Positions 4,158 through 46,210 of a stretch of 64,000 nt of DNA are shown here, piece by piece; within the stretch, counting starts at the first letter, position 1, and every line of letters begins with the position of its first letter. The DNA lies in assembly GCA_015059015.1 (NCBI GenBank), contig SVBG01000001.1:10026-74025 (forward strand), read 5' to 3'. The position numbers and the translations under genes were made by a program. Origin of the DNA: Erysipelotrichaceae bacterium. GTDB lineage: Bacteria > Bacillota_I > Bacilli_A > ML615J-28 > CAG-313. A model generated the notes under the pieces. The model saw only the letters and a list, made by a program, of their open reading frames with translations, made no database searches and had not been told where the DNA came from.

Positions 4158-4167
4158 AGTTTTAAAT

Positions 4168-9050: not shown

Positions 9051-9430
9051 TATTTACAAATAATTTTTATAATGTTATATTGTTATTATAAATGAGTTTT
9101 TAAGGATTTTTGTTATATATTTTAATTTTTTGCGTCCTGGTTTCTTAATATTGTTTTTTTCTTTAAAAACTCTTTATAATTTTTAATTTCTTTTTTATTT
9201 GGTTAGATAAAAATAGATTTTAAAATTTATTTTCATATAAAATATTTACAAATGTTTTATATGATACTATACTATCATTGTGAATGAGTTTTTAAAGATT
9301 CTGGCAATTTTTTTACCTCCTTAATAGAAAAAATATTATAATTTCCAAATTGCTTTTTTTGCTCCTTTCTTAATAATTATTTTTCTTTAAAAACTCTTTT
9401 AACAAAGAATTAATATTCAATTGTCAAATA
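9051..9430. repeat. Imperfect tandem duplication (about 190 bp x 2) of a noncoding element
   Basis: The segment 9051-9240 is mirrored by 9241-9430. Both copies share TTTACAAAT(A/G)...TATAAT/TATGAT, gaatgagtttttaa(a/g)gatt and ttctttaaaaactcttt. In each copy GAGTTTTTAA(A/G)G and CTTTAAAAACTC form a 12-bp inverted repeat about 65 nt apart. Confidence 0.6.
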
Positions 9431-9544
9431 AAGTTTAGTTATGACAATTGAATATTTTTTTGTTTAAACTTTTGTTTTATCAATATTCATAATGAATTTA
9501 TAAAAATATGTTATACTATAACTAGATATAAGGAGAAAAGAGTT

Positions 9545-26100: not shown

Positions 26101-26363
26101 CAATTGAATCTATCGCAACTTCAGAAGAAAATCTAGAACTTACAAATCAATTAATTAACGATATTGTTGGTAATGAAACTCATGTTGATTATACTAAAGA
26201 AGATATTACAGAAGCAGCAGAAGTAGTTGAATCAATTATTAATCAATATCAAGCATCAGATGATCAAGATAACTTTGATTTAGATAACTTATCAGAAGAA
26301 GATAAAGAAATGATAGAAAACTCAGAAATTGCTAAAGCAATTCTAGATGCATTATTTAAATAA
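23127..26363 (+). CDS. Large membrane protein with an N-terminal CvpA-like (colicin V production) 4-TM domain fused to an ~850-aa acidic helical repeat region (75-aa units with conserved NW(K/D))
   Basis: GLIRGFKKSLRRFVALLIP and KGKLIGLGFGALQFTLIFILYLLP match the CvpA motifs SLIRGFVREAL and GTDRVLGxxFGALRGVLIV. The repeats are IDFTAIKNINWKTDG..LLPTVMQVLIANLEQDE, IDFEELKKVNWKENL..LLPIVMNVLIENLETNE and FDFVAIKNTNWKTEL. Confidence 0.6.
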   Translation: MNYFFIIDIVLLVILTISLLAGLIRGFKKSLRRFVALLIPTICLFIFLGPITNKVMKTKVDLEKIDNIVQFIPDEYTEEPYSINDAVSIIVADNIYPDSEELQKDSKMAELISSASSMIIKVVVYFVGLFFVWIASLILRLLFRIIFKKANRKGKLIGLGFGALQFTLIFILYLLPLFGVVSFASSVLHEVDKYYEDESIKEVIEYADLYENTITKKYFLNTATKIFCKDKSVSCDAQFVMGGLSFKVDGEKVVLLDEYLEIKDAIPSAMKIIDLVNSLDGEEKIIKLSNLSDDDIENISSVIKNTKLVRVAIPAVLEYAVYSSNDSENDYSDLINKLNQLDWDKELNAIADLINVLKNHNDLEINISSFDYALKSAGLIDLATDLVNGALQMNIVTEVAIPFGINILEEEFSKGEFAEYQIDFTAIKNINWKTDGSGFVTTLTNIYKEYLRVDINFSDIKVALNDAKLPDFVTYVFDEIDKSVIITDTLLPTVMQVLIANLEQDEDIIDLGIDFEELKKVNWKENLKPIKNLLHDLIESYQVLEIDPEDFKAVLKNNKLQIELDKAITNILDCDVFANYLLPIVMNVLIENLETNESLASFNFDFVAIKNTNWKTELTYFKDVFVEFLNAYQGLDFNKDDWMAILDSENLAAYITNIYNEAKESSLVSEHILPKLPNKLHELIDGVDSSLDVSFLKELITEDSIDTLLTDDLDKLIVLFKEIKALGLLDGVELNYTDATTQDSLIKVIKEIFDLSVVNGKESTIFKSIITMINIEPVLEQYDITLDYENVENWDNEVDYICTIFKNAMTLTGGLEGFDLTTLLTKISTEEEKNKIAEIVEAVGNSDLFGDSIYTIIDSVSKEIDSTIEINFTNEEKNTIENVNGWKFEALHILELVEKIDHIDFGVDYEHLNADEMKEIMVYCSESVVSTKLFGSILNNVFSGVINHDFTNQETMKNDADVIYNAIKVASIIQNDTIDLTDTTVTDELIESIESIATSEENLELTNQLINDIVGNETHVDYTKEDITEAAEVVESIINQYQASDDQDNFDLDNLSEEDKEMIENSEIAKAILDALFK

Positions 26364-26365
26364 AC

Positions 26366-27484
26366 TATTTACAAGTTTATTAATTTATGTTATACTATAA
26401 GTGAAAAGTCCCATCAAAGGTGGGTAAGATGGATTTTTTTACACTTTATTTCTTTTTTGAAGGAGGCCTTTTTGTTTTGGTTCAAGTGCAAAAAACATCA
26501 ACCTCCTTCTAATATATTAAAACATAATGAAATTGCTTTTTCATTTAAAAAAATTTCATGCAACTATTTACAAATGATTAAATTTATGATATACTATAAG
26601 AGAAGCAGTTAGTTTCAATCGTATGAAACTCTTCTTCATTTTTGTGAGAAAAGTCCCGGGTTTTGATTTATGTTTTTGTTGGGACTTTTTACACTTTATT
26701 TTCTCTTGTTCTTTATTATAGAACACAAGAATTTAAGCAAAATGCTTACCAACCGAATTATTTCGGTAATAAGTCTGATTAAATCAGACATTCTTAGCCT
26801 CCTTATTTCTAGGAGGTTTTTTATTTTGGTTAAAATGCAAAAACATCACCTCCTTCTAACATATCCCCTTACAAAGTTATATTTAGAAGAAGAGTGCATA
26901 TCCCCTGGTTTATATAATGTTATTACGATATCATACAAACCGCTTCCATATACATAATTAGCAGAACTAGGTAAAATTGCTCTTTTTATTTTAAAAAAGT
27001 TTTCGACAACTATTAAAAAGTTTCATGCAACTATTTACAAATCATTAAATTTATGATATACTATAAGAGAAGCAGTTAGTTTCAATCGTATGAAACTCTT
27101 CTTCATTTTGTTGAAAAGAGTCCCAAATTATTTGTTATGTTTCGTTTGGGACTTTTTACACTTTATTTTCTCTTGTTCTTTATTATAGAACATAAGAATT
27201 TAAGCAAAATGCTTACCAACCGAATTATTTCGGTAATAAGTCTGATTAAATCAGACATTCTATGCCTCCTTATTTCTAGGAGGTTTTTTATTTTGGTTAA
27301 AATGCAAAAACATCACCTCCTCCTAACATATCCCCTTACAAAGTTATATTTAGAAGAAGAGTGCATATCCCCTGGTTTATATAATGTTATTACGATATCA
27401 TACAAACCGCTTCCATATACATAATTAGCAAAAGGTATTAAAATTGCTCTTTTTATTTTAAAAAAGTTTTCGACATTTAAATAC
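26366..27484. repeat. Tandem repeat of a 468-bp noncoding unit: two near-identical copies (about 26549-27016 and 27017-27484) plus a diverged internally deleted copy (26366-26548)
   Basis: Direct reading shows the full copies differ by only a few substitutions. Each carries TTTACA-17 nt-TGaTATACT (consensus-like extended -10 promoter), the hairpin agtttcaatcgtatgaaact, the hairpin aagtccc...gggactttt plus T-run, and a CCTCCT/AGGAGG/CCTCCT triple. Confidence 0.8.
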
Positions 27485-27725
27485 AAAAGAATTATTCATA
27501 AAAAATAAAAAAACTTGATAAGAAAACTCTTATCAAGAAAATAATGTGTTAATATATAATTTATGTTTAAAAAAGTCACAAAGGTAAACCTTTGTGATAC
27601 CTTTATTTATACTATTTATTTTAACAAATAACCTCTTTTTTTTCAATAAATATAAACTTTTAGTTATATTTAATATATATTTTAATATGTTATAAAAGTT
27701 TACCTTTATGGATAGGAGGAAAATT

Positions 27726-27842
27726 ATGAAAAAAGAATTTGAAACTCCCACAATAGAAATCATCAATTTTGATGAAAACATTAATTTAGGACCAAATGAC
27801 GAATGGTACGATTCAAATGTTGATATGGGTGGGTGGATTTAA
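27726..27842 (+). CDS. Conserved 38-aa peptide MKKEFETPTIEIINFDENINLGPNDEWYDSNVDMGGWI (paralogue 2 of 3), translationally coupled to the downstream LRR gene
   Basis: The RBS GGAGGAAAATT lies 4-5 nt upstream. The peptide is identical to the copy at 57266, with 2 synonymous DNA differences. The stop TAA lies 2 nt before the ATG of the LRR gene. Confidence 0.6.
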   Translation: MKKEFETPTIEIINFDENINLGPNDEWYDSNVDMGGWI

Positions 27843-27844
27843 TT

Positions 27845-31228: not shown

Positions 31229-31265
31229 TAATTTATAATTTAAAGAATTAATCATATAAAATAGA

Positions 31266-31316
31266 TAGACTTTTTGAATAGTGATTTTATATTCTATTCA
31301 AAAAGTCTTTTTTTTT
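31266..31316 (+). terminator. Rho-independent terminator of the LRR gene
   Basis: atagactttttgaatag...ctattcaaaaagtct followed by ttttttttt. Confidence 0.6.
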
Positions 31317-32082
31317 GTATTAAATCTTAACGATATAAAAGATAGAACGTCTTTTATAGGATAAATTATTAAAAACTGTTCTAAAATTTCTATGTTAAAA
31401 ATCGAATGTTAAAATTTATAATTATAAAAGTGTCTTTATAATATTTAAAAGTTATTTAATAATAGGAAATGAAAAATATAAAAATTATTGTTTGAAACTA
31501 TGCATAGAGCATTATTTTTAATGTAGTTAGCGAACTTATAAAATGATAGGTCCATAATATTAGATATGTTTGTTGTATTTAAATTATATGCAAATTTTGA
31601 AAAAAGGAATTAAAGTTTGGAATTATAGTGCATTAATGATAGCTGAATTAGTTAACAATTAGTGTCTTGGTTAATTTTTTTACGAATGTTTAATATAGGT
31701 AAAATATTAGTGCTTTAATTTTCTAATTCTAAAGCATATTTTTGAAAGTGAGTGATTATTGAGTAACGATTTTAATTTAAAAATATGGACTATTTTACTA
31801 TTTAATTTTTGACTGTGTTGTGCTTCATACTATTGATAGAGAGTATATAATTCGAGATATTGACTTATTAATAGTTGGTATAACGAGTAATAATGTAATA
31901 TTGTTTGAGATGCTTTTTGCATCTCTTTTTCTGAAAAAGTGTATAAAATTATTTTTCTAATATTTCCTATTTAAATGTGCTTTTTGGTTTAAAATTTAAT
32001 TATTTGTAATCCAATAATTGGAAAAAGTTTTAATTAAAAAAAGTAAAATCTAATTTTTTTGAATATTTTAAGGTAGGATTAC

Positions 32083-32111
32083 TTGCAAAAAAAGAAGTTT
32101 TTTAGTATAAT
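32083..32111 (+). promoter_or_regulatory. Sigma-A promoter for the giant gene
   Basis: TTGCAA-17 nt-TATAAT lies 38 nt upstream of the RBS AGAGGTG and the ATG at 32149. Confidence 0.5.
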
Positions 32112-32148
32112 AAATGAGTAAAGTCATAAATAAAAGAGGTGAATTACA

Positions 32149-35100
32149 ATGATGGATTTTAATCTGATATTGTTGCTAGTCGGGTTGGGATTACTAGTAC
32201 TAGTAGCAGTATTTGTACTTTTAGGTTGTTTCGCTGGTCTAAAGAAAGAACTTAAATGTACAGCCATCGGCTTTGTGGTGTTACTTTTAACATTACTGGT
32301 CTTTGGTAACTCTTCAACAATCCTTGATTTTAATGGATCATTGTTGAAGGATTTCATTCAGGGAATTCCAAGCTCTGCAGAAACTGTTTGGGACTGCATT
32401 TTAGCACTTGTTCAAACAAAAGTTCCTGGAGGGGCTGAGATCTTTGCTGAAGGAACAAAATCCTATGCCTTTTTATACAGTGTTGTGAGTGGCGTTGCAC
32501 GTGGTGCAATGTTAATCATTGGAACATTAGTAATGTTCATTCTATGTACTATCGGTCTTGGTATTTACCGTTTAGTTAGTAGAATTGTTGCTCACAATAA
32601 AGCTAAGAAGCGTGCTGAAGCTGGTGTTGAAGAACCTGCTCCTGAACAAGACAAAGTTATGAATGACAATGTCTTAGTAGCACAATCTGAAGCTGGTGAT
32701 GACGAAGGAGTTATGATAACGGCAAACAAAGAGCCTGTTAAACCTGGTTCTGGTAAGCACCGTGGATGGGCTGGGGCCCTTGCGGGGCTTCGTGCTGTAA
32801 TCGCAATTATCTTCTTATTCGCTCCTGTATCTGGCGTATGTTCGATTCTGGATGAGATTTCTCCTGAAACTGAAACACTTATTAATGAATCATTAAGCGG
32901 TAATAAACAAAACACTGCTGCATCAGAAACTATCTTAGATGTTGTTCTTGATTTTAAAGATGCATATTATGATAGTGCAGTAGGTAAGTTTATTGAAGGG
33001 TCTAAATTCTTCTTTGGTGAATCATTTAGTTTACAACTTTTCGATAGTGCATTTGTTATTGAAGGCGACAAAAATAACATTGTAGTACGTGAAGAAGCTA
33101 TTGTCTTTGTTGATGCTGTAAATGCATTAGAAGGCAATCTTGATTTGAAAAAGTTAGAATATAGCCAAATCGCTAATGCTTTAGATGAATTGAAAGATTC
33201 TAAATTACTTGTTGAGGCTATGCCTGTTGCTATTGAAACAGCATACTACTATCCAATTAATGCAAAAGGAAACATTAAATTAATGGGTAGTAATGAATCT
33301 TTAAAAGATTTATTATTTGCTGCAAAACAACAAGCTGCATTCTTAGAATTAAGACAAGTAGATTGGGATAAGAACATTGAGATTTTACTTGATACTGTTA
33401 AAGAAGCTTATAAACTTGGTGTCTTAGAAGATGATTTTAATTTCTTAACTATGGATCCAGAACAATTAAGCGCTACAGTTGAAGTACTTCTTAAATCTGA
33501 TGCTGTTAATAGTCTTTTAAATATCGCTGTTCAAACTGCATTAAAATTAGATGTTGTTAAAAATGCTGTTGGTGAATTACCTGCTGCTGACTTATCTGAT
33601 TTTAGTTGGAAAGAAGAATTTGAAACTATTATTGACATCTATGAAATATTCCAAGGTTTAGAAATTACTTCATTAAACAATCTTGATATTAAAGCATTAG
33701 TTTCTGAAATCGTAAATGATGAAGACAAACTTGAAATTGTTGCAGATATCGTTAAAGAAGTTACTGAATTACAACTAGTTAACAAAGTTGGTTATGACGC
33801 ATTGCTTGGATATGTTTCAAATATGAGTCATGTCGTTAATGCTGGTGATGATGTTGTTAAAGCAGTAAAAGATTTAAAAGATGTTAATTGGTCAAATGAT
33901 ATTAATATTTATGTTGAAGCAGCAATTGAAGCATTACCACTTATTGAAATTGGTGATGATTTAAAAATTAATGTTGATTATCTAAATTTAGATGTTGATA
34001 CAATTAGAAATGTACTTGATATCTTATTTACTACTGAATCATTTGAAAAAGTACTTCCTATTGGAGCAAGTGTTGGTTTAAATATCGCATTATCTAACGA
34101 AAAAGTTATTGGTTTCTTAGGCGATATTAAAGTAGAACTTGATACTTCTGCAATTAATTGGAAACAAGAAGTTACAACTTTAGTGGATGCATATGATGAA
34201 TTCCAAGATCTTGGAATTAAATCATTAGAAGAAGTGGATAAAGTATTACTTACTCAAATTCTAAATGATAGCAAAAAAGTTGAAATTATTGAAAATGTAA
34301 TTGAAAAAGTTACTGAATTACAATTACTTAAAGAAGTAGTATATGGTGTTGCAATTGAATATGTACTAAACATTAAAACTATCCAAGATCAAGGTACTGA
34401 TCTTGTAGAAACACTTACAGAATTAAAAGAGTATGATTGGTCAAAAGATATTAATGTATATGTTGATGCAGCAATCGCAGCATTACCACTAGTTGATATT
34501 GAATATGGATTCGAAATTAAAATTGATATTTTAAATTTAGATGCAGCACAACTTCAAGTTGTAGTTGATACATTATTTAATGCTGAATCATTTGAAAAAC
34601 TATTACCTGTTGTTGCAAACATTGGATTAGATAAAGCATTATCTAACGAAAAAGTTAAAGAAATTATTGGTGAAGAAAAAATTGTTTATGATACTTCTAA
34701 TGTTAACTGGAAACAAGACTTTACATCATTAGTTAACATTTATAGTACATTCCAAGTTCTTGATATCAATAGTCCAGAAGACTTTAATGATATGTTAGCT
34801 GTTGCAAAACGTATCTTAGATAGTGATGAAAAATGTGATGCAGTTGAATCGATTTTACTTCAACTTGTTGATATGACAATTTATGAAGGTGTTGTTATTC
34901 CATTTGCTGATGCTGCTGTAACTAATTTAATTAGTACAAGAGCTTCAAACTTTGAAGGTATCTTAGATATTACTAAACTTAATAAAGATGCATGGAAGAA
35001 TGATTTTACTGATTTAGTTGCTATTGCACGAAATGTTTATGAAATTTGCGGGCTTGAATTTAAATTAGAAAATATTGATTTCGAAGTTCTTTGTGGAGTT

Positions 35101-38100
35101 CTTGGTACAGAAACTGTTGAATTATTATTTAACTTAAATTTACTTGATGGTAATGAAACTAAAAATCAATTAGTTATTGCTGTATTAAAACAATTTAATG
35201 TATTTGATGAAGAACAATTAGCAAATGTTGATTTAAGTGAAGTTATCTGGGTTTCAAATGGTGAATATTCAGAAGTTGCTAATTTCCAAGAAATTTTAAC
35301 AATTTTAGGCAAAATGCTTGAAGTTAAGGGATTTGATTTAAATAACTTAAAATTTAATTATAATGACATTCTTGCTGATGAAAATGTATATGGATATGCA
35401 GTAGATTTATTAGATGTTGTTGTTGATTCTGAATTAATTCTTGCTTTGATGCCTAATATTCTTGATAAATATGTTGTTCCTCAAGTAGAAAAATGGGATG
35501 ATGAAGATGCTACATTAAATCAAATTATTACTGGTTTAGATTCTGAAGAATTAGTACTTGAAGTTCAAAAACTAGTTGATGTTGTGAAAGCAGTTGTTGA
35601 TCTTAATGTATTAAATTACGAAGATGAAGGTATCCAAGGAATTGATTTTGGTAATACAGATGCTCTTAGAACAATCGTTAATGGTATTTTTGATTCTAAA
35701 CTTCTAGAAGGTTATGAATCAAGAGTAGTTCGTATCTTACTTAAAGTTACTAACTTATTCCCTGATCTTGCAAAAGGTACATTTGATAATGTTGATTTTG
35801 ATAGTGAACAAGCAATTTTAATTGCTGCTATTGATGCATTAGAAGTTGTACTTAAAGATGAAAACTTCTTAACATTTGATGAAAATGGTAAATTCAAATT
35901 AGATAAAGAATTCTACTTAAAAGATGAAACTTTAGATGCATTCTTAAATACTTTAAAAGCTCTATTTGGTGAATACAAAGAAGGCGGTTCAGTATACGGT
36001 TCTGAAATTGTTGAAATTTTATTACCTGATTTATTTGAAAAATTTGTTGCTAAATTAATTCCTGAACAATTTGATGAATTAATGGCTATCTTAAATATTG
36101 ATGGTGCTAATCCAGGTCTTTTAGCTGATGATGTTCGTAAAGTTATTTATATTGCTGAATTATTAATCGATGAAAAAGTTCAATCATACTTACTTGGAAA
36201 TGATTATAATTTCGCTAATATTATTGATGCTCTTCAAGAAGTTGTTGTTACTGTATTTAACTTAAATATGGTAAATGGTAGTGAAGCTGAACTTATGGCA
36301 TGGGCTCTTAACTATGTACAATCAGTTGCTAAATTAAATGTTGGTACATTTACAGCTGAAGATTTCGCAAATGTTGATTGGGATAAAGAAGTTGTTGCTA
36401 TTAATACAGTACTTAATGATGTTGTTAAATTTACAAATATCAATAAGATTTCTACAGTTAATAAAGTTATTGAATTTATTAAGAATAAAGACTTCTTAAA
36501 AGATGATTTCTATCAAACTTATAACATAAATGTTATATTTGATACTATTGAAGATATATTTGATTTACAAACAATTGAATATACACTTCCTGTAGTATTA
36601 GAATATGCATTAAATCTTGCTAAAGAAAAGAACTTTGATGTTTCATTCTTAGGTGACAACATGACTGGTGAATTACTAGTTGAAGATGTTATGTCAATTG
36701 TTGAAGCATTAAAAGTTGCAGTTTATGATATTGAAATTTTAGAATATAAGAAAGCTAATTGGACAGGTGATCTTCCAGAAGTTGAATATGTTGTTGAAAT
36801 TTTAGATATTATTGTTAATTTAAATATTTTAGAAAATAAAGAAAAACAATTATTACGTTATTTAGTAGATAAATTTATTCCTACTAATCCTTATGTTAAA
36901 GTAAGTGATTTCGTATTCGATTTACATTATGATTTTGATGCTGATTATGAAATTATTAAAGAAGCTTTACCATTAATTTATGAATTAATTTACGCTAATA
37001 ACATGACTAAGATTGAACAAGTTAAAGCATTCTTTACTGAAAAATGGTATATGAATACTGATTTAGTTAAAGATTATAACATTAGTCTTGCATGTGATTT
37101 AGTAGAATTATTAAGTGATTTACAATTAGTAGAACAAGCATTATTTGGTCTTGCTAACAACCTTCCTGAATTAGATGCTCTTACTAAGATTGGTGATTTC
37201 TCAAGCTTAAAAACTCTTTCAAGAAGAGAACTTGTAAATGATCTTAAGACACTTGTAAGTATTGTTCGTCAAGGTTTAGATGCTAATTTACTAGATTATT
37301 ATGAATATAAAGATTTAGATTATATTGATTACGAAGCTCTTGCTGGTATTATTGAAACTGTTGGAACACTTAACACCGTTAAATATTGTGGTTCTGATAT
37401 TCTTCCAGAAGTGCTTAATTATCTTGTTTCTAAAAATGCTAAATTAAATATCGATTATACATTTACTAAAGCTGATTTTGCTGATGTAGATTGGGAAGAA
37501 GAAACAATTATTTTAGGTCAAGTATTAGTTGAAACTGGTGCATTATTAAATAATATTAATCTTGATTCATTATCAGATATCTTATTATTTATTAATCATA
37601 AAGACTATTTAGATACTACTATCTATACTGATGCTAATGCTAAACAAGTTGTTAATATTCTTGATATTGCAGTTGAAAGTGAAGTTATTAAAGCTGTAGG
37701 TATCGTTGGATTTGAATATGCATTAGATTTCGCAAAAGATAAAGGATTTGATATTACATTCTTAAAAGGCAAATTAACTAGTGATGAATTAATTAGTGAT
37801 TTAGATGTAATTGTTGAAATTGCATTGAATGCTATTGAATTTGGTGCTGTTGAATATGTTGTTACTAAGAATATTAATAATATCGATACTACTTATCTTG
37901 TAAATATTGTTGCATTATTAGAAGAACTTAACATTCTAAAATGTGCACAACCTGAATGGACTGAACTTGTAGTTTCTAAAGTTGCTCCATTATTAAAACT
38001 TGAATTAAAAGTAAATGCTGCTAAATATCGATTCATTAACTTTGCTGATGAAAATGTATTGCTTCAAGAAGCTATCATATTAATTGGTCAAATACTAGAA

Positions 38101-41100
38101 AATGAAAATATTCATAGTATTGATGAAATTAAACAATTTATTGGTAATAAAGATTACTTAGATATTAATGCTTATAAAGATGAAGTTATTGCTAATGTAC
38201 AAGACTTATTAGTTCTTGCAACTGAAAGTGATATTTTAGGTGTTCATTTAATTGAATTATTTGATTATGCTATTTCTCTTGCATCTTCTAAGACTAACTA
38301 TGATTTATCATTTATGGAAGATGTTGTTACAACTAGTGAACTTCAAGCTGATATTAGAAAGTTAGTTGAAATTAGTGATTATTTAGTTGAATTTGGTATC
38401 GTTGAACTAATTCTTCTTGGTGATGTTACAATTAATCTTGATCCAATTATTGAAGTAGTTCCTCTATTAGAAGAAGTTAATCTTCTTACTAAGACAAATG
38501 ATTATATTGCTGAAATCGTTTATAACATTATTCTTCCTAAGATTGGTTTAAAATCTGTTGATGTTGAACACTTTGAAGATATTGATTTCGCAAAAGAAAA
38601 TGCTGTATTAGTTAAAGTATTAGAAGAAGTTAAAGTATTATTAGAACTTGAAGACTTTACTACTGTATCTGACGTTGTATCATTTGTTAAGAATAAAGAA
38701 TATTTATACTCTGATAAATATGAACAAACATTTAATAGCGATGCTGTTGAATCAATGTTTAGACTAGTTCAATTAGCAGTTTCTAGTGAACTTGTTCAAT
38801 TAGAACTTGTTCCATTATTCAACTATGGTGTAACTAAATTAGCTGAAAAAGTTGATGTTGCATTCTTAGAAGACAGTGTTAAAACATCTGAACTTGTAAG
38901 TGATGTTGATGTATTAATTAAGATTGCTAGACTTGCTATTGAATTTGGTGCATTAGAATATGTATTTACTAAGGATATTGAAGTTGTTAACTTAGAACCT
39001 GTAATTGAAATTGTTGCGTTATTAGAAGAATTAAATATTGCTAAAAATAGTAATAGACAACTTTCAGCATTTGTATTTAACTTAATTTATGATAAACTTG
39101 GTATTAACAAAGATGCTAATGAATTAGCTAAAGCTAAACAAGGTCGTTCATCTAAAGTTAAACCTAGCGAATTTGTATATGTTAATTTTGCAAGTGAAAA
39201 CGTAATTCTTCAAGATGCTCTTGAAGTTGTTAGCTTATTACAAGCAGACTTTGGTCTAACTTCATTAAATGATATTATTGAATTTGTTAATAATAAAGAA
39301 TACACTAAGATTAAAGAATTTAGTGCTGCTACTTATACTCATGCATTAGATTTAATTAATGTTGCTACTATTTCTGCATTAGTTCAATATGCACTTCCTA
39401 CTTTAGCAGACTTTGGTTTAGATAAAGCTAGTGCAAAAGGATATGACTTCACATACCTTTCTGGTGTATTTACTGGTGCTGAACTTGCAAATGATATTAG
39501 AGTTCTTGCTAAAGAAGCTGTATTCTGGTTAAGAGATAATAACATTTTAAGTGTTCTTGATAATAAAGCTGTTGAAGCTTACTATTTTGATGAATTAGCT
39601 GAAACTATTAAAGCATTAAAAGATGTTAATATTCTAAATTATGAACAAGCTACATTAGTTACTAAACTTACTAATTTAATTTATGATAAAGCATTCAAGT
39701 ATGAAGGAACTATTGATGAAACTTACTTTAATGGTATTAATTGGGATGTTGAATTTGATAATGTTGCTGCATTATTAGTTGAACTTGGTGATATTGCTGA
39801 AACATTTGGTATTGAATATGATTTATTATCACTTGATGGATTAAAAGCATTTAAAGCTAATGCTAAGAATCTTGAAATCTACAATGATGAAGAATTATTA
39901 AATAACCTTGCAGATGTATTATCAGTACTAGGAAATTCAAGTGCATTATTATCTGAACTTGAATTTGCTGAAGAATACTTAATTTCTAAATTAGCTGCAA
40001 AAGATATTACATTAAATTCAATCTATACTTCTAAAGAAGGTCTTGCTGAAGATTTAACTGCTTTAATTGATGTTCTTAATGTTGTATATCCTTCTAATGT
40101 TCTTGGATTTGCTACTGGTAAAGAAGAACTTAACCAAGCATATGTTGTTGAACTTGTTGCTGCTGTTGAATCAGTTCTTAACATGAACTTATTAGCAAAC
40201 TCTAAAGCTGATATTCTTGATGTAGTATTTGACAAACTTGGTATTAATGTTGAAAAAGAAAAACTTGATGCTATTGTTTGGGATAATGCTGAAACAGAAG
40301 TTATTGGTGATTTATTACTTGCTGTTAATGATTTAATGGTTGAATTAGAAGTATTAACAATTGAAGATGTTAAAGGTATCAATGTAAAAGAATACTTAAC
40401 AGTTAATTATGAAACTAACGATCGTTTAGCTGCTATTAGTGCTGTTATTAAAGTTGTATTAGAAAGCAAATTAGTTGAAGCTTCATTATTTGGTATTTCT
40501 GAAAAATACTTAAATGGTGAAAAAGTAAGCGGATATGCTGATTTACATGTTATTTATACAGATGTTGCACAAGTTAAAGAAGACTTAACTAAACTTGCTG
40601 CTACAATTGATGCTGTTATTGAATTAGATTTATGTAGTTTCTTAGTTGAAGGTTCTAACATTCCATATGAAAAGAAAGCTGCTATTGAAACTATTATTAA
40701 TAATGTATTTACATTAAATTACTTAAATAACGAAGGTAGAGTTACTGAACTTATCGCTAAAGTATCTCCAATTGATACATCAAGCGTTGACTTTAGTAAT
40801 GTTAACTTAGTAAGTGATGCTCAATTATTAATTGAAGCATATGAAGAATTATTCCCAATCTTAACTTCAGATGAATTCTTCTTAAAGACTAAGAATGATA
40901 TGAAGTCTATTACTAAAGACGATTTAATGTTCTTAACTAATGATGAAAATATGCCTTCTGTTAAAGCTGCTTTAAATAATATTTTAGACACTACATTAGT
41001 AACTGAAACAAATGGTGCTATCTTCTTATTAGTAGTTCCACTAATTAAGAATGCTGCTCCTAAGTATTATGAAGCACTTGACCCTGAAAGATTAACAATT

Positions 41101-44100
41101 GATGAGTTAGGTGATGACGTTAATGCAATCTTTGATTTAGTTAAAGAAGTTATTAATGCTGATCTTAACGGAATCTTAAAAGGTATGATCTTTAATGATG
41201 ATGTTGAAGATTTATTTACTAATGCAATTAATACAATCGCTAATCTAAATCTTCTTAATGAAAGATTTGATGACCTTGCATTAGTTATTGCAGATGATCT
41301 AGATTCTAAACGTGTTGGTAATTACTACTTTGATAAATCATTATATAACTTAACAGACGTAATGTATAAAGAAGATTTACTTGCTGTAATCGATATTATT
41401 ACTGCTGTTTATGATTTCTTTGAAGTTGAAAATATCGCAACACTAGGTGATGCTAAAGAACACTTTGGTAATAAATCTAATATTACTGCTTTATTAAAGA
41501 ACACTACTCAAGTTAATAATCTTGAAAATATTATTAAATTAGTTACTGAACTTACATTTGCTAAATACAATATCTTACCTGTTTATAATGAAGCATTACA
41601 AAGTAAATTTGCTGAATTAATCGGTGCTGAACTTGCTGATGCAACAAGTGTATATGCTACAAGTGAAGAAATGATTAATGACATTGTAAGAGGTCTTGAT
41701 GTATTAAGAGATTTAATTGATCTTGGTGCATTTGATGCATTAGCTGGTGCTGAAATTAACTTTGATCAAGCTGATCTTGTTAAGAAACTTCTTGCTGATA
41801 TTGCTTTAGTTGAATATGTAAATGTTCAAAAACAAAATATTTTAGAATTTGTTGATAGTAAAGTTAGATTTGATCTATCACAATTAGATATTTCATCAAT
41901 GGATTTAGTTAATGATTTAACTGTATTTGGTGAAATGTATGAACAACTAATCCCAGTTCTATTATCTGAACATAATCCGTTTACAACTGTATCTGCTATT
42001 AAGGCACTTACAATTGCTAAATCTGATTTATATGCCCTTATTTATGATTATCAATCAATTTATCCATCAGTTGTAACATTATTAAGCGAAGTTTCTATTG
42101 CTCCACAATTAGTTAAATTTGCTGCTGATAAAGTGGAAAATAGATTAACTGGAATTGCTAAACAACTTGTTGTGACTCTTGATGTAGAAAATGCTAGTGA
42201 TGCAGATATTATTGAAGACCTTGTTGCTGGTGCTATAGTATTAGGCTATGTTGAAGATCTTGACTTATTAAGAAAAGTTCTTTACAAAGAAGATATTACA
42301 GTTACTGACAATGAAACAATTGCTGCTTTAGTTGCAAGTGTATTTGAATTAAATATTGTTGACAACAAGTTTGTTGAACTAGTTGAAGTTGTTCTTGAAG
42401 AAGTTCTTCATTTAGACTTAACTGGTCTTGACTTAAATGTTAATGATATTGATGAAGAACAAGAACTTATTGTTGAACTTGTTAACAATGGTATTATTGT
42501 TATGAATGATTTAGGTGCTCTAAACTTATCAGACGTTAAGCCATTAATTAAAGATATTAAGAATACTTTAGTTAATAACTATAAGAAATTAAATGGCAAT
42601 AGAATTCTTGATATTGTTGATGCATTAGTACAATCTGAATTATTCGAACAACTTGCAATTCCTACATATGAACAAAAAGTTTATCCTAAACTTTCTGGCA
42701 CATTAGCTGTTGCTGGAGATATTAGTGGTTACTCTCAAGAACAATTTGTTGAAGACTTAGCATTAATTGCTGTAATGACTAATGATATGAAAGTTTCTGG
42801 ACTTGCTGAGTTAATCTTTGATTCAGTTACTCCTGAAAGAACTTGTATCCCATATGTAGAAAGAATCATTAGAAATCTATGCATGTTAAATATTGTTGAA
42901 GTTAAGAAGGCTGATGTTCCTACTTGTCTTCAAGCTGTATTAGATAAATTAGGTTTAACTTCATTTATTAGAAAATATGATAAAGACTTTGATTTAGCTA
43001 AGTATGATTTATCTAATGTAAACTTTAAGTCAGATGCTGATATCTTTGCATCTATGGCTCAACAAGTATACGTTGTAATTGAATCATTAGTTGAAAGCAA
43101 ATATACTTCTAAATTCTTTGCAGATAGAGATGCTATGATAGCTCTTGTTGAAATGTATGAAATTTCACTTGATACTACATTTGTTAAGACATTTGCTGCT
43201 AAAGCATTAAATGCTGTTAGCAAAGTTGCTAATAAAGTTAATGCTACTGTTAATGAAGATGATGAAGCAGTTCTAATTAACATCGCTAACTTCCTATATG
43301 GTTTAGTTGACTTAGGTGTTGTTGGTGCTGATGCTATCGATTTCACTGATAAAGATACTGTTAATATGATGGTTCAATCTATTCATAATAGTATTACACT
43401 TCCTGAAAAAGCTAAGACTTTAATTGATAAAGTTGCTTCAAGAATGTATGCTTACGGTGTTGTTCCATTTGATTGGGATGCAGTTTCTATTAAGTCTGAA
43501 TTAAAACTTGTTAAAGAACTTATTTCACAAGTTACTTCATTCGAACATGAATTTAAGTTAGTTACACTTGTAAATCCTGATGCACAAGTTGATATCGATC
43601 AAATGATTTATACAATTAGTGATTCTTCATTTGTTGAACAATTATTCTTCCCATTCGTTGAAGGTACGTTTAAAGCATTAACATTAGGTTATACTGATGG
43701 TGAAATGGTTTATGGTGCTACACTTGATGATGTATTAGAATACTCACTTCCTAACTTCTGGAAAGTAGTTGATGCAGTATATGATATTACAGAATTTAAT
43801 ACTGCTAATATTAACGCAAACAACGTTTTAGCTAACCTAGATGCTGTTAGAGAAATTGTTGAAGTATTCGGAACTGATATTATGTTAAAAGATAATGTTG
43901 CTAAGATTATCGCTACAGGTATTGGTAAATATACTAGTCATGATTTATCAGATGCACAATTAGCTAAATTACTTGCAATTGACTTTGAAAATGAAGTTCA
44001 ATATTCAGATGCATTCTTTACTGCATTAGAAGATACATATAATAATTATCCATTCTCATTAGATAAATCTATGTTAAAAGATGCTAATGTTGTTAAAGGA

Positions 44101-45822
44101 TTAGCTGATGCTATTGAAGAAATCTTACCTAGTGAAACTATTAAAGTTCTTGGAAGAATTGCAATGAAGATTGCTAATAATCGTGTTATTGCTGATAGAC
44201 TTGGTGATGCTTCAGAAATTATTAATGATCGTCTAAATGATGATGCATATACTGATGAATTAATCGTTGATGATTTATATATGTTTGTTGAAATCCTAAG
44301 AAATGCTGCTGATTCTGGTATTTTAAATAATAGAACAGACTTTGCAAGTTGGGATATGACTGCAATTAGACATATTGTTACTTTATGCTTCGATACTAAC
44401 TTAGCTAATGGTTGTGAAAATGAACTTGCTGAAGCTTGTATTGATATCATTCCTGGTATTGATGAATATTATGACTCTTCAGTTGTAATTCCTAACTGGG
44501 AAACTGAAATTAATACAATTATTGATGTTATTGAAAGCTTAAAGAATGATGGTATTTATGATTTAGAATCTGCTAATGTTGATCAATTAAGCGGTACAAC
44601 TATTGAATATATTAATGACTCAATTATCTTATCTGATATTTTAGTTGATGCAATTAATGATAAACTAGTTGAATTAGATTTAGATCAATATTATGTAGCT
44701 ACTAAAGAAAAATTAGATCTTGTAGTTGATTGGGATGTAGAACTTGATGCAATTAGAGACTTAAATGATATCTTAGATTCATTTGATAATGGAACATATG
44801 TATTTAGTGAAGTTGTAAATGTTTATAACAACATTAGAACTAATACTGTATTAGTTAATGATATTGTTGTAAGCAGTGCTGAATATGTTGTACCTAAGAT
44901 GCCAGTTGTTAAAGGTTACTACAATGATTCTATCGCTATTGATAATTGGACTAATGAAATGGATGCAATCGTTGCTGCTCTTGAACAATTAGATGCTTGT
45001 GGTGTTGATACAATTGATGATCCACTAGATACTAGAATTACTGGTGATTTAATGTGTGCATTAATTCAATCAAAGATTATTGTAAATGGTCTAGTTCAAG
45101 AAATTAACGAAAGCTTAGTTAATAATGATTTAGATACTTATGCTGTTACTGCTGATGATGTTTTAATGGTTCAAACTCCTGCTGAATGGGAAAAAGAACT
45201 TGCTGCATTAAGAAAGATTGAATCTGTAGGTATCTTAAACTCTAAAGATGATTTAACAGACGAAGATAGACAAAATGTTATTGATACAGTTAAATCAATT
45301 AAAGGTACTATCTTATGTGATAAAGTATTATCTGAATCTGCTGAAACATTAGTTCCTAAACTACCTGTAATTAAGAATTATCCTGAAACTCTAACAGGTA
45401 TTTATGGTGATGAATGGTCAGTTGAATTACATATCATTATTGATGCATTAGATGTATTACCTATTGATATTACTACAGTTGAAAATCCAATTGAAAAATT
45501 AACTGGTGAAATGATGGTAGCTTCATTAAAATCTAAGATTTTAACTAGAGCAATTACACTTGAATTTAACCATCAATTAGTTAATTTAAATTTACCATTT
45601 ACAGTTGCTGAAAGTGATTTAACATCTATTACAACTGCTGCTGAATGGGATACTGAACTTGACACAATTCTTGAAATCAAGGAAGTATTAGATAACTATC
45701 AACTTGGTACTGTAACTCTTCCTCAAGTTGTTACTCTATACAATAAAGTAGTTGCTGAAACTGTTCTTGCTGAAAAGATTTTAGTTAAGGCATTAGATGA
45801 TAGAGGTATTACTATTGCATAA
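32149..45822 (+). CDS. Giant (4557 aa) acidic repeat protein with an N-terminal CvpA-like 4-TM domain; function unknown; paralogous to the 23127 gene
   Basis: A single uninterrupted 13.7-kb ORF. The N-terminal TM helices carry LLGCFAGLKKEL and SGVARGAMLIIGTLVMFIL, which are CvpA-like. The remainder is D/E/L/V/I/N/A-rich with a recurring helical module of about 150 aa containing (V/I)(D/N)W(S/D/K)(K/E)(D/E) and LP(V/I) motifs. Confidence 0.7.
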   Translation: MMDFNLILLLVGLGLLVLVAVFVLLGCFAGLKKELKCTAIGFVVLLLTLLVFGNSSTILDFNGSLLKDFIQGIPSSAETVWDCILALVQTKVPGGAEIFAEGTKSYAFLYSVVSGVARGAMLIIGTLVMFILCTIGLGIYRLVSRIVAHNKAKKRAEAGVEEPAPEQDKVMNDNVLVAQSEAGDDEGVMITANKEPVKPGSGKHRGWAGALAGLRAVIAIIFLFAPVSGVCSILDEISPETETLINESLSGNKQNTAASETILDVVLDFKDAYYDSAVGKFIEGSKFFFGESFSLQLFDSAFVIEGDKNNIVVREEAIVFVDAVNALEGNLDLKKLEYSQIANALDELKDSKLLVEAMPVAIETAYYYPINAKGNIKLMGSNESLKDLLFAAKQQAAFLELRQVDWDKNIEILLDTVKEAYKLGVLEDDFNFLTMDPEQLSATVEVLLKSDAVNSLLNIAVQTALKLDVVKNAVGELPAADLSDFSWKEEFETIIDIYEIFQGLEITSLNNLDIKALVSEIVNDEDKLEIVADIVKEVTELQLVNKVGYDALLGYVSNMSHVVNAGDDVVKAVKDLKDVNWSNDINIYVEAAIEALPLIEIGDDLKINVDYLNLDVDTIRNVLDILFTTESFEKVLPIGASVGLNIALSNEKVIGFLGDIKVELDTSAINWKQEVTTLVDAYDEFQDLGIKSLEEVDKVLLTQILNDSKKVEIIENVIEKVTELQLLKEVVYGVAIEYVLNIKTIQDQGTDLVETLTELKEYDWSKDINVYVDAAIAALPLVDIEYGFEIKIDILNLDAAQLQVVVDTLFNAESFEKLLPVVANIGLDKALSNEKVKEIIGEEKIVYDTSNVNWKQDFTSLVNIYSTFQVLDINSPEDFNDMLAVAKRILDSDEKCDAVESILLQLVDMTIYEGVVIPFADAAVTNLISTRASNFEGILDITKLNKDAWKNDFTDLVAIARNVYEICGLEFKLENIDFEVLCGVLGTETVELLFNLNLLDGNETKNQLVIAVLKQFNVFDEEQLANVDLSEVIWVSNGEYSEVANFQEILTILGKMLEVKGFDLNNLKFNYNDILADENVYGYAVDLLDVVVDSELILALMPNILDKYVVPQVEKWDDEDATLNQIITGLDSEELVLEVQKLVDVVKAVVDLNVLNYEDEGIQGIDFGNTDALRTIVNGIFDSKLLEGYESRVVRILLKVTNLFPDLAKGTFDNVDFDSEQAILIAAIDALEVVLKDENFLTFDENGKFKLDKEFYLKDETLDAFLNTLKALFGEYKEGGSVYGSEIVEILLPDLFEKFVAKLIPEQFDELMAILNIDGANPGLLADDVRKVIYIAELLIDEKVQSYLLGNDYNFANIIDALQEVVVTVFNLNMVNGSEAELMAWALNYVQSVAKLNVGTFTAEDFANVDWDKEVVAINTVLNDVVKFTNINKISTVNKVIEFIKNKDFLKDDFYQTYNINVIFDTIEDIFDLQTIEYTLPVVLEYALNLAKEKNFDVSFLGDNMTGELLVEDVMSIVEALKVAVYDIEILEYKKANWTGDLPEVEYVVEILDIIVNLNILENKEKQLLRYLVDKFIPTNPYVKVSDFVFDLHYDFDADYEIIKEALPLIYELIYANNMTKIEQVKAFFTEKWYMNTDLVKDYNISLACDLVELLSDLQLVEQALFGLANNLPELDALTKIGDFSSLKTLSRRELVNDLKTLVSIVRQGLDANLLDYYEYKDLDYIDYEALAGIIETVGTLNTVKYCGSDILPEVLNYLVSKNAKLNIDYTFTKADFADVDWEEETIILGQVLVETGALLNNINLDSLSDILLFINHKDYLDTTIYTDANAKQVVNILDIAVESEVIKAVGIVGFEYALDFAKDKGFDITFLKGKLTSDELISDLDVIVEIALNAIEFGAVEYVVTKNINNIDTTYLVNIVALLEELNILKCAQPEWTELVVSKVAPLLKLELKVNAAKYRFINFADENVLLQEAIILIGQILENENIHSIDEIKQFIGNKDYLDINAYKDEVIANVQDLLVLATESDILGVHLIELFDYAISLASSKTNYDLSFMEDVVTTSELQADIRKLVEISDYLVEFGIVELILLGDVTINLDPIIEVVPLLEEVNLLTKTNDYIAEIVYNIILPKIGLKSVDVEHFEDIDFAKENAVLVKVLEEVKVLLELEDFTTVSDVVSFVKNKEYLYSDKYEQTFNSDAVESMFRLVQLAVSSELVQLELVPLFNYGVTKLAEKVDVAFLEDSVKTSELVSDVDVLIKIARLAIEFGALEYVFTKDIEVVNLEPVIEIVALLEELNIAKNSNRQLSAFVFNLIYDKLGINKDANELAKAKQGRSSKVKPSEFVYVNFASENVILQDALEVVSLLQADFGLTSLNDIIEFVNNKEYTKIKEFSAATYTHALDLINVATISALVQYALPTLADFGLDKASAKGYDFTYLSGVFTGAELANDIRVLAKEAVFWLRDNNILSVLDNKAVEAYYFDELAETIKALKDVNILNYEQATLVTKLTNLIYDKAFKYEGTIDETYFNGINWDVEFDNVAALLVELGDIAETFGIEYDLLSLDGLKAFKANAKNLEIYNDEELLNNLADVLSVLGNSSALLSELEFAEEYLISKLAAKDITLNSIYTSKEGLAEDLTALIDVLNVVYPSNVLGFATGKEELNQAYVVELVAAVESVLNMNLLANSKADILDVVFDKLGINVEKEKLDAIVWDNAETEVIGDLLLAVNDLMVELEVLTIEDVKGINVKEYLTVNYETNDRLAAISAVIKVVLESKLVEASLFGISEKYLNGEKVSGYADLHVIYTDVAQVKEDLTKLAATIDAVIELDLCSFLVEGSNIPYEKKAAIETIINNVFTLNYLNNEGRVTELIAKVSPIDTSSVDFSNVNLVSDAQLLIEAYEELFPILTSDEFFLKTKNDMKSITKDDLMFLTNDENMPSVKAALNNILDTTLVTETNGAIFLLVVPLIKNAAPKYYEALDPERLTIDELGDDVNAIFDLVKEVINADLNGILKGMIFNDDVEDLFTNAINTIANLNLLNERFDDLALVIADDLDSKRVGNYYFDKSLYNLTDVMYKEDLLAVIDIITAVYDFFEVENIATLGDAKEHFGNKSNITALLKNTTQVNNLENIIKLVTELTFAKYNILPVYNEALQSKFAELIGAELADATSVYATSEEMINDIVRGLDVLRDLIDLGAFDALAGAEINFDQADLVKKLLADIALVEYVNVQKQNILEFVDSKVRFDLSQLDISSMDLVNDLTVFGEMYEQLIPVLLSEHNPFTTVSAIKALTIAKSDLYALIYDYQSIYPSVVTLLSEVSIAPQLVKFAADKVENRLTGIAKQLVVTLDVENASDADIIEDLVAGAIVLGYVEDLDLLRKVLYKEDITVTDNETIAALVASVFELNIVDNKFVELVEVVLEEVLHLDLTGLDLNVNDIDEEQELIVELVNNGIIVMNDLGALNLSDVKPLIKDIKNTLVNNYKKLNGNRILDIVDALVQSELFEQLAIPTYEQKVYPKLSGTLAVAGDISGYSQEQFVEDLALIAVMTNDMKVSGLAELIFDSVTPERTCIPYVERIIRNLCMLNIVEVKKADVPTCLQAVLDKLGLTSFIRKYDKDFDLAKYDLSNVNFKSDADIFASMAQQVYVVIESLVESKYTSKFFADRDAMIALVEMYEISLDTTFVKTFAAKALNAVSKVANKVNATVNEDDEAVLINIANFLYGLVDLGVVGADAIDFTDKDTVNMMVQSIHNSITLPEKAKTLIDKVASRMYAYGVVPFDWDAVSIKSELKLVKELISQVTSFEHEFKLVTLVNPDAQVDIDQMIYTISDSSFVEQLFFPFVEGTFKALTLGYTDGEMVYGATLDDVLEYSLPNFWKVVDAVYDITEFNTANINANNVLANLDAVREIVEVFGTDIMLKDNVAKIIATGIGKYTSHDLSDAQLAKLLAIDFENEVQYSDAFFTALEDTYNNYPFSLDKSMLKDANVVKGLADAIEEILPSETIKVLGRIAMKIANNRVIADRLGDASEIINDRLNDDAYTDELIVDDLYMFVEILRNAADSGILNNRTDFASWDMTAIRHIVTLCFDTNLANGCENELAEACIDIIPGIDEYYDSSVVIPNWETEINTIIDVIESLKNDGIYDLESANVDQLSGTTIEYINDSIILSDILVDAINDKLVELDLDQYYVATKEKLDLVVDWDVELDAIRDLNDILDSFDNGTYVFSEVVNVYNNIRTNTVLVNDIVVSSAEYVVPKMPVVKGYYNDSIAIDNWTNEMDAIVAALEQLDACGVDTIDDPLDTRITGDLMCALIQSKIIVNGLVQEINESLVNNDLDTYAVTADDVLMVQTPAEWEKELAALRKIESVGILNSKDDLTDEDRQNVIDTVKSIKGTILCDKVLSESAETLVPKLPVIKNYPETLTGIYGDEWSVELHIIIDALDVLPIDITTVENPIEKLTGEMMVASLKSKILTRAITLEFNHQLVNLNLPFTVAESDLTSITTAAEWDTELDTILEIKEVLDNYQLGTVTLPQVVTLYNKVVAETVLAEKILVKALDDRGITIA
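33800..35000 (+). repeat. Best-preserved tandem copies of the ~450-bp (150-aa) module inside the giant gene
   Basis: VKDLKDVNWSNDINIYVEAAIEALPLIEIGDD...LDTSAINWKQEVTTLVDAYDEFQDLGIKSLEEVDK is followed by LTELKEYDWSKDINVYVDAAIAALPLVDIEYG...YDTSNVNWKQDFTSLVNIYSTFQVLDINSPEDFND. Many further degenerate copies lie downstream. Confidence 0.6.
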
Positions 45823-45832
45823 GTAATAAAAA

Positions 45833-45869
45833 TTAGAAGCATTCATATTTTATGAGTGCTTCTTTTTTT
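45833..45869 (+). terminator. Rho-independent terminator of the giant gene
   Basis: agaagcattcatattttatgagtgcttct followed by ttttttt. Confidence 0.6.
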
Positions 45870-45894
45870 GCTTGAAAAGATAAATGCCTACTAT

Positions 45895-45923
45895 TTGACA
45901 AAACAGTAATATTTTGATATAAT
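45895..45923 (+). promoter_or_regulatory. Consensus sigma-A promoter of rpmE
   Basis: TTGACA-17 nt-TATAAT; the leader that follows contains the hairpin ccatggtttgacgtgaaaaccatgg before the RBS GGAAGGAGAG. Confidence 0.6.
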
Positions 45924-45985: not shown

Positions 45986-46210
45986 ATGAAAAAAGGGATT
46001 CATCCTCAATATAACAAAGTAACTGTTGTTTGCGTATCATGTGGTAATACATTTGAATCAGGATCAACTAATAAGGAAGTACGTGTTGATACATGTTCTA
46101 AATGTCATCCATTCTATACTGGTGAACAAAAGTTTGCTCAAGCTGCTGGACGTGTTGACCGTTTCAACAAACGTGTTGCTGCTGCTCAAGCTAAAAAAGA
46201 AGGTAAATAA
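45986..46210 (+). CDS. rpmE: 50S ribosomal protein L31 (zinc-ribbon type)
   Basis: [28 protein letters not shown]...[10 protein letters not shown]...RVDRFNKR, with CxxC...CxxC motifs; 74 aa. Confidence 0.9.

Follow-up and report, generated by a model that had tools for sequence, protein, structure and literature searches.

The 64,000-nucleotide stretch considered here (hereafter, the window) comes from contig SVBG01000001.1 of the Erysipelotrichaceae bacterium assembly GCA_015059015.1, and contains a gene of 13.7 kb whose 4557-residue product we will refer to as the giant. With moderate confidence, we regard the giant as a functional, lineage-specific protein of the cell envelope, an acidic surface fibre or brush tethered by its N-terminus. 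Its function is most likely structural, the fibre or brush being long and negatively charged. The giant founds an undescribed family, set apart by a new repeat module and by the novel pairing of its anchor with its array. The features on which this reading is built are collected in Table 1.

The open reading frame (ORF) of the giant is uninterrupted and by far the longest in the window, according to both a mechanical ORF list and direct translation. The original prediction, made from the letters of the DNA, of a single genuine giant gene with its own promoter, ribosome-binding site and terminator, the largest in the window, is thus borne out, as the expression signals described below were also found and the promoter and leader are conserved in orthologues. 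The computed product has a mass of 507 kDa and an isoelectric point (pI) of 4.18, with 17.2% Asp plus Glu (D+E) and 7.6% Lys plus Arg (K+R). It is rich in Leu, Val, Asp, Ile, Glu, Ala and Asn and poor in Cys (0.5%), His and Trp, and the roughly 4300 residues that follow the anchor carry a net charge of about -437. At ~28% GC, about 8% of random codons, or one in twelve, are stops, so 4557 open codons are not the result of chance (estimated probability ~1e-170). GC content and GC skew across the gene are continuous with the flanking sequence. Two ATG codons occur in the start region, the first of which reads ATA or ATT in several orthologues, and because it is not conserved, translation probably starts at the second, position 32152.

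A scan of one genome per GTDB species with a profile of the N-terminal 1000 residues recovered 20 loci, all of them in metagenome-assembled genomes (MAGs) of uncultured gut 'Bacilli' or 'Mollicutes'. Sources include goat caecum (RGIG1779, 92% identical), water deer, Hadza and other human gut, and rabbit, with further loci in 'Staphylococcus sp. CAG:324', Acholeplasmatales UBA11505 and an Anaeroplasma-labelled MAG. The frame is open throughout the available sequence at all 20 loci, over more than 4000 codons in most, and orthologues whose stop lies inside the fetched locus are 4046-4245 aa long. One orthologue, on a metagenome contig (L001, 4680-16647), is called as two genes, the first of 655 aa and the second, starting 8 nt on, of more than 3616 aa; this is probably a frameshift or sequencing error rather than a real split. 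Purifying selection acts along the whole giant, with a dN/dS against the closest relative of 0.38 overall and of 0.15-0.53 in every 300-codon window. The original prediction had named frameshifts or stops, that is, a pseudogene, as one finding that would undo it. The explanation that the ORF is a pseudogene, or the product of chimeric assembly or of chance, is practically negligible: we found no point in its support, and it is contradicted by a frame intact in 20 independent assemblies from ~20 species, by dN/dS values below 1 in every window, by the conserved expression signals and by the negligible contribution of chance at 28% GC.

When 1.84 billion representative proteins were searched exhaustively with HMMER, the family grew to 231 clusters at 50% identity, 60 of them at E<=1e-30. 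These fall into a giant class of 3857-6731 aa and a second, short class of ~950-1700 aa, which includes the 1078-aa paralogue in the window. The members examined are without exception acidic (pI 4.1-4.6), and each has four transmembrane (TM) helices at its N-terminus. Further along the chain, no hydrophobic segment passes the threshold except in three members, which have one or two short ones. Searches of a 5.8-billion-protein index with the first 1000 residues, with a 22-sequence N-terminal profile and with the module profile returned 4, 5 and 0 hits, respectively, candidate selection being saturated. None of the sources searched gives a name to any family member. The paralogy between the giant and the 1078-aa protein encoded at 23127, noted in the original prediction, is confirmed by BLASTP (E 2e-8), by a shared 4-TM anchor layout and by a shared module. 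The most conserved part of the family, as gauged by tile scores across distant giants, is the membrane anchor (residues 1-240) together with the juxtamembrane domain that follows it, and the majority of distant members match at profile positions ~200-550. A second block, at residues ~1050-1500, gives median best tile scores of 52-78 bits in 20 distant giants vs 10-40 bits elsewhere in the array. Conservation therefore follows a gradient, being high at residues 1-450 and 1050-1500, low in mid-array and absent over the last ~650 residues outside close relatives; the C-terminal region goes undetected in 17 of the 20 distant giants.

In 17 aligned orthologous loci, whose proteins are 31-39% identical, the ~70 bp 5' of the start codon are nearly invariant, retaining CTTGCAAAAAAA, the spacer, TA(T/A/C)AAT, GTAAAGTCAT and AAAGAGGTG. 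The promoter itself (TTGCAA-17-TATAAT, 32083-32111) is of a pattern that occurs twice in the window vs 0.04 times expected by chance. Promoter-like hexamers are common in the AT-rich upstream spacer (16 sites found vs 10 expected), so a match alone is weak and it is conservation that gives the promoter of the giant its weight. The 24-nt leader motif GTAAAGTCATRAAWWAAAGAGGTG is found exactly in 20 of 26 loci, once in each and solely 5' of the giant gene. No conserved RNA structure was found in the leader (-2.8 kcal/mol, with no covariation). The 10-nt element GTAAAGTCAT at 32118-32127, immediately after the -10 box, is invariant in 20 loci whose proteins are ~33% identical; it is possibly the site of a regulator or a constraint of the transcription-start region. 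Downstream, the hairpin proper of the terminator occupies 45835-45863 and is followed by the T-run.

The spacer 5' of the giant measures 920 bp (31229-32148) rather than the ~830 bp originally given, and only its last ~245 bp are common to the closest relative (L002). The length is due to an insertion carrying a gene for a BspA-type leucine-rich repeat (LRR) protein, so that only those ~245 bp are ancestral. As defined relative to L002, this insertion is ~4.4 kb long, is found in the window only, lies at ~27511-31907 between paralogue and giant, and has its LRR gene at 27833-31228. A terminator-like hairpin at 31907-31925 falls exactly on its right-hand homology boundary. To the left of the insertion lies a tandem duplication of a ~480-bp element (26548-27014 and 27031-27510), each copy of which holds a near-identical 95-aa ORF (26670..26957 and 27137..27424). 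L002 has one copy of this element, in its own paralogue-giant spacer at 9231-9743.

In the anchor, a hydropathy scan locates TM1 at residues ~5-28, TM2 at ~38-55, TM3 at ~108-141 and TM4 at ~208-232, with no convincing TM helix anywhere beyond these four, and in an AF2 model of residues 1-560 the corresponding helices are 4-29, 31-52, 104-157 and 205-234. Loop 3 (residues 142-207, ~66 aa) is rich in Lys, Arg and Glu and is modelled as disordered, with residues 159-202 at pLDDT <50. We rejected an alternative with five TM helices, in which the 41-aa hydrophobic TM3 is divided in two, as AF2 gives one continuous helix at 104-157 and loop 3, with its many Lys and Arg residues, would then lie outside the cytoplasm. 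The possibility of a lipobox after TM4 was likewise dismissed, its Cys being unconserved among orthologues. The anchor has a GC content of 0.41 and the stretch from TM3 to TM4 one of 0.41-0.46, vs 0.28 for the rest of the gene, because of the amino-acid composition of the region. The expectation of a locally GC-richer, Gly/Ala-rich stretch between TM3 and TM4 is hence half right: the GC enrichment is real, but Gly and Ala together account for a modest 21-27% and the stretch is mainly the K/R/E-rich disordered loop.

Averaged over 22 giants, loop 1 (9 aa) contains 2.7 K+R residues and loop 3 contains 12.1, and the N-terminus (3-4 aa) contains none. The 54-aa loop 2 averages 3.2 K+R and 7.0 D+E, and the 31 residues after TM4 average 2.4 K+R and 6.0 D+E. 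Taken with the positive-inside rule, this distribution predicts an N-out/C-out topology, in which the acidic chain would lie outside the cytoplasm. The outside placement is thus suggested by the charge around the TM helices, by the CvpA-type anchor discussed below and by composition. As to the last, proteins of the window with a signal peptide or lipobox have pI values of 4.2-4.7 and 4-9% K+R, whereas its cytoplasmic enzymes mostly have pI values of 5-9.4 and 10-14% K+R; the giant (pI ~4.2, 7.6% K+R) groups with the exported set.

The reverse topology would make the giant a cytoplasmic, membrane-tethered scaffold or cytoskeleton, its array lining the inner face of the membrane and shaping or stiffening thin-walled or wall-less cells, much as the large cytoskeletal proteins of Mycoplasma shape or stiffen theirs. 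We consider this unlikely, although it is not without attractions. The organisms are from a group related to the Mollicutes, where loss of the wall is common; intracellular scaffolds typically consist of all-alpha arrays; and every weak Foldseek neighbour of the giant is an intracellular solenoid. The giant also has no cleavable N-terminal signal peptide, and Cys makes up 0.37% of the supposedly exported part. The predicted topology nevertheless disfavours the cytoplasmic cytoskeleton entertained in the original prediction, as the positive-inside analysis of 22 orthologues assigns loops 1 and 3, which are K/R-rich, to one face of the membrane and assigns the N-terminus, loop 2 and everything beyond TM4 to the opposite face. 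CvpA-type anchors are moreover predicted to have an extracytoplasmic C-terminus, the composition is like that of exported and not cytoplasmic window proteins, and a variable distal end fits exposure to the outside. The other structural roles then suggested, an envelope ruler or scaffold and a cation-binding matrix, may apply, with an external version favoured.

At the outer end of TM4 lies a P-x-x-G motif (P226 and G229; 32824-32835) that is invariant in giants and whose equivalents in the short class are nearly so. The window sequence here reads V-S-G, which resembles the -3/-1 site of signal peptidase I, and the array might be cleaved from its anchor at this point. Were that so, the giant would be a released exoprotein, with signal peptidase I cutting TM4 at P-x-x-G, the array being shed as a matrix or capsule-like layer and the CvpA-like 4-TM part staying behind. 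The invariance of the motif speaks for such release, as do the small or aliphatic residues at -3/-1 expected of signal peptidase I sites under the -3/-1 rule and the positively charged stretch before the hydrophobic core of TM4. Yet the motif may be a mere helix kink, AF2 placing a break there between helices 205-223 and 225-234. The hydrophobic core, at ~20-25 aa, is long for a cleaved signal, and conservation continues unbroken from TM4 into the juxtamembrane domain. Release of the array is therefore rather improbable in our estimation, and we retain the tethered fibre or brush.

The original prediction described the anchor as CvpA-like. This holds directly for the short class, 12 of 30 members of which match Pfam Colicin_V (PF02674; gathering score, 29.3 bits) at E<=0.01. 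The paralogue in the window scores 32.5 bits, over profile positions 1-51 only (TM1-TM2), and the short-class consensus scores 25.8 bits (E 1.2e-5) over positions 1-124 of 144. For the giant itself the description fails as a direct match, since none was found at E<=0.01; 2 of 22 giant anchors reach E<=0.1, while a consensus built from the anchors of the giants gives E 0.086. It is solely through the homology between the giant and short anchors that the CvpA link extends to the giant, and the relationship is thus plausible but remote and transitive. Like the giant, CvpA begins with four TM helices whose loops 1 and 3 are short and K/R-rich, and these are followed by a C-terminal segment of variable length that is predicted to be extracytoplasmic. 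The placement of both termini outside, characteristic of the CvpA type, is also predicted for the giant from its four helices and the K+R counts of 22 orthologues. CvpA, however, is a stand-alone protein of ~160-200 aa, whereas the giant has ~4300 extra residues and the family ranges from ~950 to 6731 aa; the expansion of loop 3 to ~66 disordered residues is likewise unlike CvpA. To our knowledge, the molecular function of CvpA itself is unknown, so membership in its family would explain little.

The remainder of the giant is a long, acidic, helical array of degenerate repeats, as originally proposed, with composition, an iterated module hidden Markov model (HMM) and AF2 in agreement. The proposed unit of ~150 aa in 25-30 copies needs correction. 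Repeats are certainly present, but the core of the module is ~141 aa long, it recurs every ~183 aa through most of the giant, and each unit has ~9 helices; the HMM gives 25 matches of any length, 23 of which cover at least 70 of 141 model positions. A spacing near 150 aa is seen only C-terminally, where the last ~500 residues form a distinct ~76/152-aa Trp repeat (W at 4117, 4195, 4267, 4347, 4423 and 4500) with self-matches such as 4050-4239 to 4354-4544. In the first 1000 residues, each unit consists of two ~90-aa halves with one Trp apiece. The conserved Trp and Leu-Pro boxes of the original prediction were both recovered: 17 of the 27 Trp residues after the anchor share the context [DNESAT]-W-[DKSTEN]-x-[DEN], and 30% of Pro residues are preceded by Leu vs 13% expected. 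Across the family, the module count ranges from 14 to 30 and correlates with protein length (r = 0.91), copy number setting the length of members from 3857 to 6731 aa. The short paralogue holds the same module.

Two segments were modelled by AF2 with family alignments. Residues 1-560 gave a mean pLDDT of 75 and a pTM of 0.69, and residues 1770-2330, comprising three consecutive modules, gave a pLDDT of 89.3 and a pTM of 0.78 and are entirely helical. Both segments together contain helices plus one tiny hairpin only. The high pTM of the three-module piece suggests fixed packing between modules, and hence an array that is continuous and not a series of units joined by flexible linkers.

Database searches placed the giant in no characterised family and found no enzymatic, LRR or Cys-rich signature, in accord with the original prediction. 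Pfam returned nothing, even when five segments were queried at E values of up to 10 (noise only); its best match, CNOT1_HEAT, has an E of 0.031 and is below its cut-off. There was no match in NCBIfam, PADLOC or PHROGs, nor in sequence and profile searches of the PDB. Foldseek found no significant match in the PDB or BFVD. Its weak top neighbours are cullin, karyopherin, NOT1 and beta-catenin, all alpha-solenoids or stalks, with a best PDB match of E 0.57 and TM-scores of at most about 0.2. Like the HEAT/ARM and cullin-repeat alpha-solenoids, the giant consists of all-alpha tandem repeats packed in a continuous array. Its unit of ~183 aa and ~9 helices nevertheless contrasts with the ~40-aa helix pair of HEAT/ARM, no Pfam HEAT/ARM match was found, and solenoids of that type are intracellular and eukaryotic.

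Among known surface proteins, Ebh and Embp of staphylococci are acidic, membrane-tethered rods of megadalton scale, built from ~50 tandem helical-bundle modules of ~125 aa and implicated in envelope integrity and matrix binding. The giant resembles them as an acidic, membrane-tethered protein of helical modules. The anchor polarity of Ebh, which has an N-terminal secretion signal, FIVAR/GA modules and a C-terminal membrane anchor, is opposite to that of the giant, and no FIVAR/GA module was matched in the giant by Pfam or NCBIfam. A second precedent is provided by Giant1-3 of Apilactobacillus kunkeei, extracellular proteins of 3000-8000 aa with alpha-helical repeats that are predicted to form rods of up to 0.2 um (PMC12863079). 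Like the giant, these are very large proteins of small-genome Bacillota that consist mostly of tandem alpha-helical repeats, and their paralogous genes lie side by side, as do those of the giant and the short paralogue (PMC12863079). Giant1-3 carry a beta-solenoid binding domain at the N-terminus and DUF5776 beta domains at the C-terminus (PMC12863079), whereas the giant has an N-terminal 4-TM anchor and a different module, with no beta domain detected and no DUF5776 by Pfam. This separation is by domain description. As for an extended helical array of the Giant1-3 kind, the observation on the giant is that its three modelled modules are predicted to be all-alpha (pLDDT 89, pTM 0.78).

Table 1. 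Coordinates in the window of the giant gene, its signals, the regions of its product and neighbouring genes.
Feature	Coordinates	Strand	Description and basis
Giant ORF	32149..45822	+	4557 aa, incl. stop codon; mechanical ORF list and direct translation
Promoter	32082..32111	+	CTTGCAAAAAAA (-35 TTGCAA), 17-nt spacer, TATAAT (-10); consensus scan and orthologue conservation
Conserved 5' leader with Shine-Dalgarno	32118..32141	+	GTAAAGTCATAAATAAAAGAGGTG; motif search of orthologous loci
Four-helix membrane anchor	32149..32868	+	aa 1-240; hydropathy scan, AF2, K+R counts
Juxtamembrane helical domain	32845..33498	+	aa ~233-450; invariant alignment columns, tile scores, AF2 pLDDT 75-94
Array of 23-25 all-alpha modules	33139..45522	+	aa 331-4458; tile self-comparison, iterated module HMM, AF2
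Second conserved block	35296..36648	+	aa ~1050-1500; tile scores
Variable C-terminal (distal) region	44266..45819	+	aa ~4040-4557; self-matches, tile scores
Intrinsic-terminator-like hairpin	45835..45873	+	13-bp stem, then T-run; 1 site found vs 0.2 expected
Short paralogue	23127..26363	+	1078 aa; 4-TM anchor (Pfam Colicin_V match), same module, pI 4.25
rpmE (ribosomal protein L31)	45986..46210	+	74-aa ORF, below 80-aa ORF cut-off

The genes around the giant are kept in the order fumarase/aspartase-type lyase (minus strand), murA, short paralogue, giant, rpmE, ABC-F, M29/M18 peptidases and an aBig_2 protein, with the gene for the short paralogue a short way 5' of the giant gene in almost every genome examined. 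The housekeeping genes around it (nrdD, lyase, murA, rpmE and ABC-F) are conserved across ~20 species, and the surroundings of the giant are a housekeeping neighbourhood, not an island. This counts against the suggestion that the gene is a phage- or defence-related decoy, or cargo of a mobile element. Such an origin might be supposed from a gene so large, repetitive and unannotated, with a pair of AbiEii and DUF6088 genes 6 kb downstream. Against it are the absence of any PADLOC, PHROGs or BFVD structural match, the conservation of the housekeeping neighbourhood across species, and the continuity of GC content and GC skew with the flanks, and we hold it to be very improbable.

Functional coupling of the giant to murA was considered and downgraded. 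In Bacillus subtilis, the gene order is murAB-glpX-rho-rpmE-tdk, and a distant 2323-aa family member adjoins rpmE-tdk without murA beside it, so the murA/rpmE synteny looks inherited. As the linkage is possibly inherited gene order, we do not count it as functional evidence. Between the window and L002, identity is 82% for MurA (21817-23061), 98% for NrdD, 96% for the lyase and 85% overall for the giant, and MurA seems to evolve unusually fast in this lineage. The promoter of rpmE (45895-45923) is a perfect 12/12 match to the sigma-70 consensus, with a TG extension.

Surface-protein genes are unusually dense in the window. Four encode large Cys-rich BspA-type LRR proteins or relatives of such proteins (13-3384, 12838-16758, 27833-31228 and 57373-62325), two of them assigned as BspA-type by Pfam and two by cross-similarity. 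The products of 27833-31228 and 57373-62325 share an identical 16-residue start, VDLIMKKNLFKLLFVM, inside the N-terminal signal sequence. The AbiEii nucleotidyltransferase toxin and DUF6088 protein mentioned above form a type IV toxin-antitoxin/abortive-infection pair (51723-53256, minus strand), which has the aBig_2 amidase gene on one side and the next surface-protein gene on the other.

How a tethered surface fibre or brush would arise can be outlined from these features. TM4, following the K/R-rich cytoplasmic loop, would serve as a signal-anchor, directing the acidic chain of ~4300 residues to export by the Sec machinery. Once outside, the chain would fold into a long helical-repeat array, its N-terminus tethered on the outer face of the cytoplasmic membrane. 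The conserved membrane-proximal third may serve in anchoring, in assembly and perhaps in contact with the short paralogue, and the variable distal ~650 residues would be the exposed tip. The resulting fibre or brush would form or organise the outermost layer of the envelope, providing spacing, protection, cation binding and/or adhesion. The uncultured Mollicutes-related orders of Bacilli are predicted to include thin-walled or peptidoglycan-deficient and wall-less species and to be without standard teichoic-acid pathways, with RFN20 and ML615J-28 also without sortases (PMC10868615). In such a thin-walled, teichoic-acid-poor setting, a polyanionic fibre or brush held at the surface by TM helices would be a sensible arrangement. 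A more specific proposal, which is speculative and which we rate as quite unlikely, is that the giant and the short paralogue are a protein substitute for lipoteichoic acid, that is, a membrane-anchored polyanionic brush with a net charge of about -440 per chain, in a clade of gut Bacilli for which loss of teichoic-acid synthesis and, in part, of the wall is predicted. Such a brush would define a periplasm-like space, buffer cations and shield the membrane from, e.g., bile salts and cationic peptides, and the number of modules would be a ruler for envelope thickness.

Several points weigh against assigning the giant to the cell surface as a tethered fibre or brush. Its own anchor is below significance against Pfam Colicin_V, and the topology, like the surface localisation, is a prediction, which rests on the positive-inside rule together with a remote family analogy. 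The rod-like form is deduced from pTM, secondary structure and the kind of fold seen in the weak matches. A dN/dS of 0.38 means a constraint weaker than that on typical core proteins, the linkage to murA may be simply inherited gene order, and no adhesin, wall-binding or enzymatic domain that would point to a partner was found in the giant.

Uncultured gut Bacilli related to the Mollicutes, with small genomes, thus keep a gene of 12-20 kb with nearly invariant expression signals, for the product of which the databases searched hold no name, domain or fold. That a gene of this size has survived genome reduction argues that its role in the envelope is important. If the giant is indeed an exported rod, then this family and its short paralogue would define the outermost surface of bacteria that are widespread in the human and animal gut, with a bearing on their encounters with the host, bile, phages and neighbouring cells. 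It would also be a new architecture among the few known giant helical surface proteins, in which a CvpA-type 4-TM anchor is joined to a new ~183-aa alpha module, and the CvpA fold would gain a concrete job as an anchor for extracytoplasmic domains.

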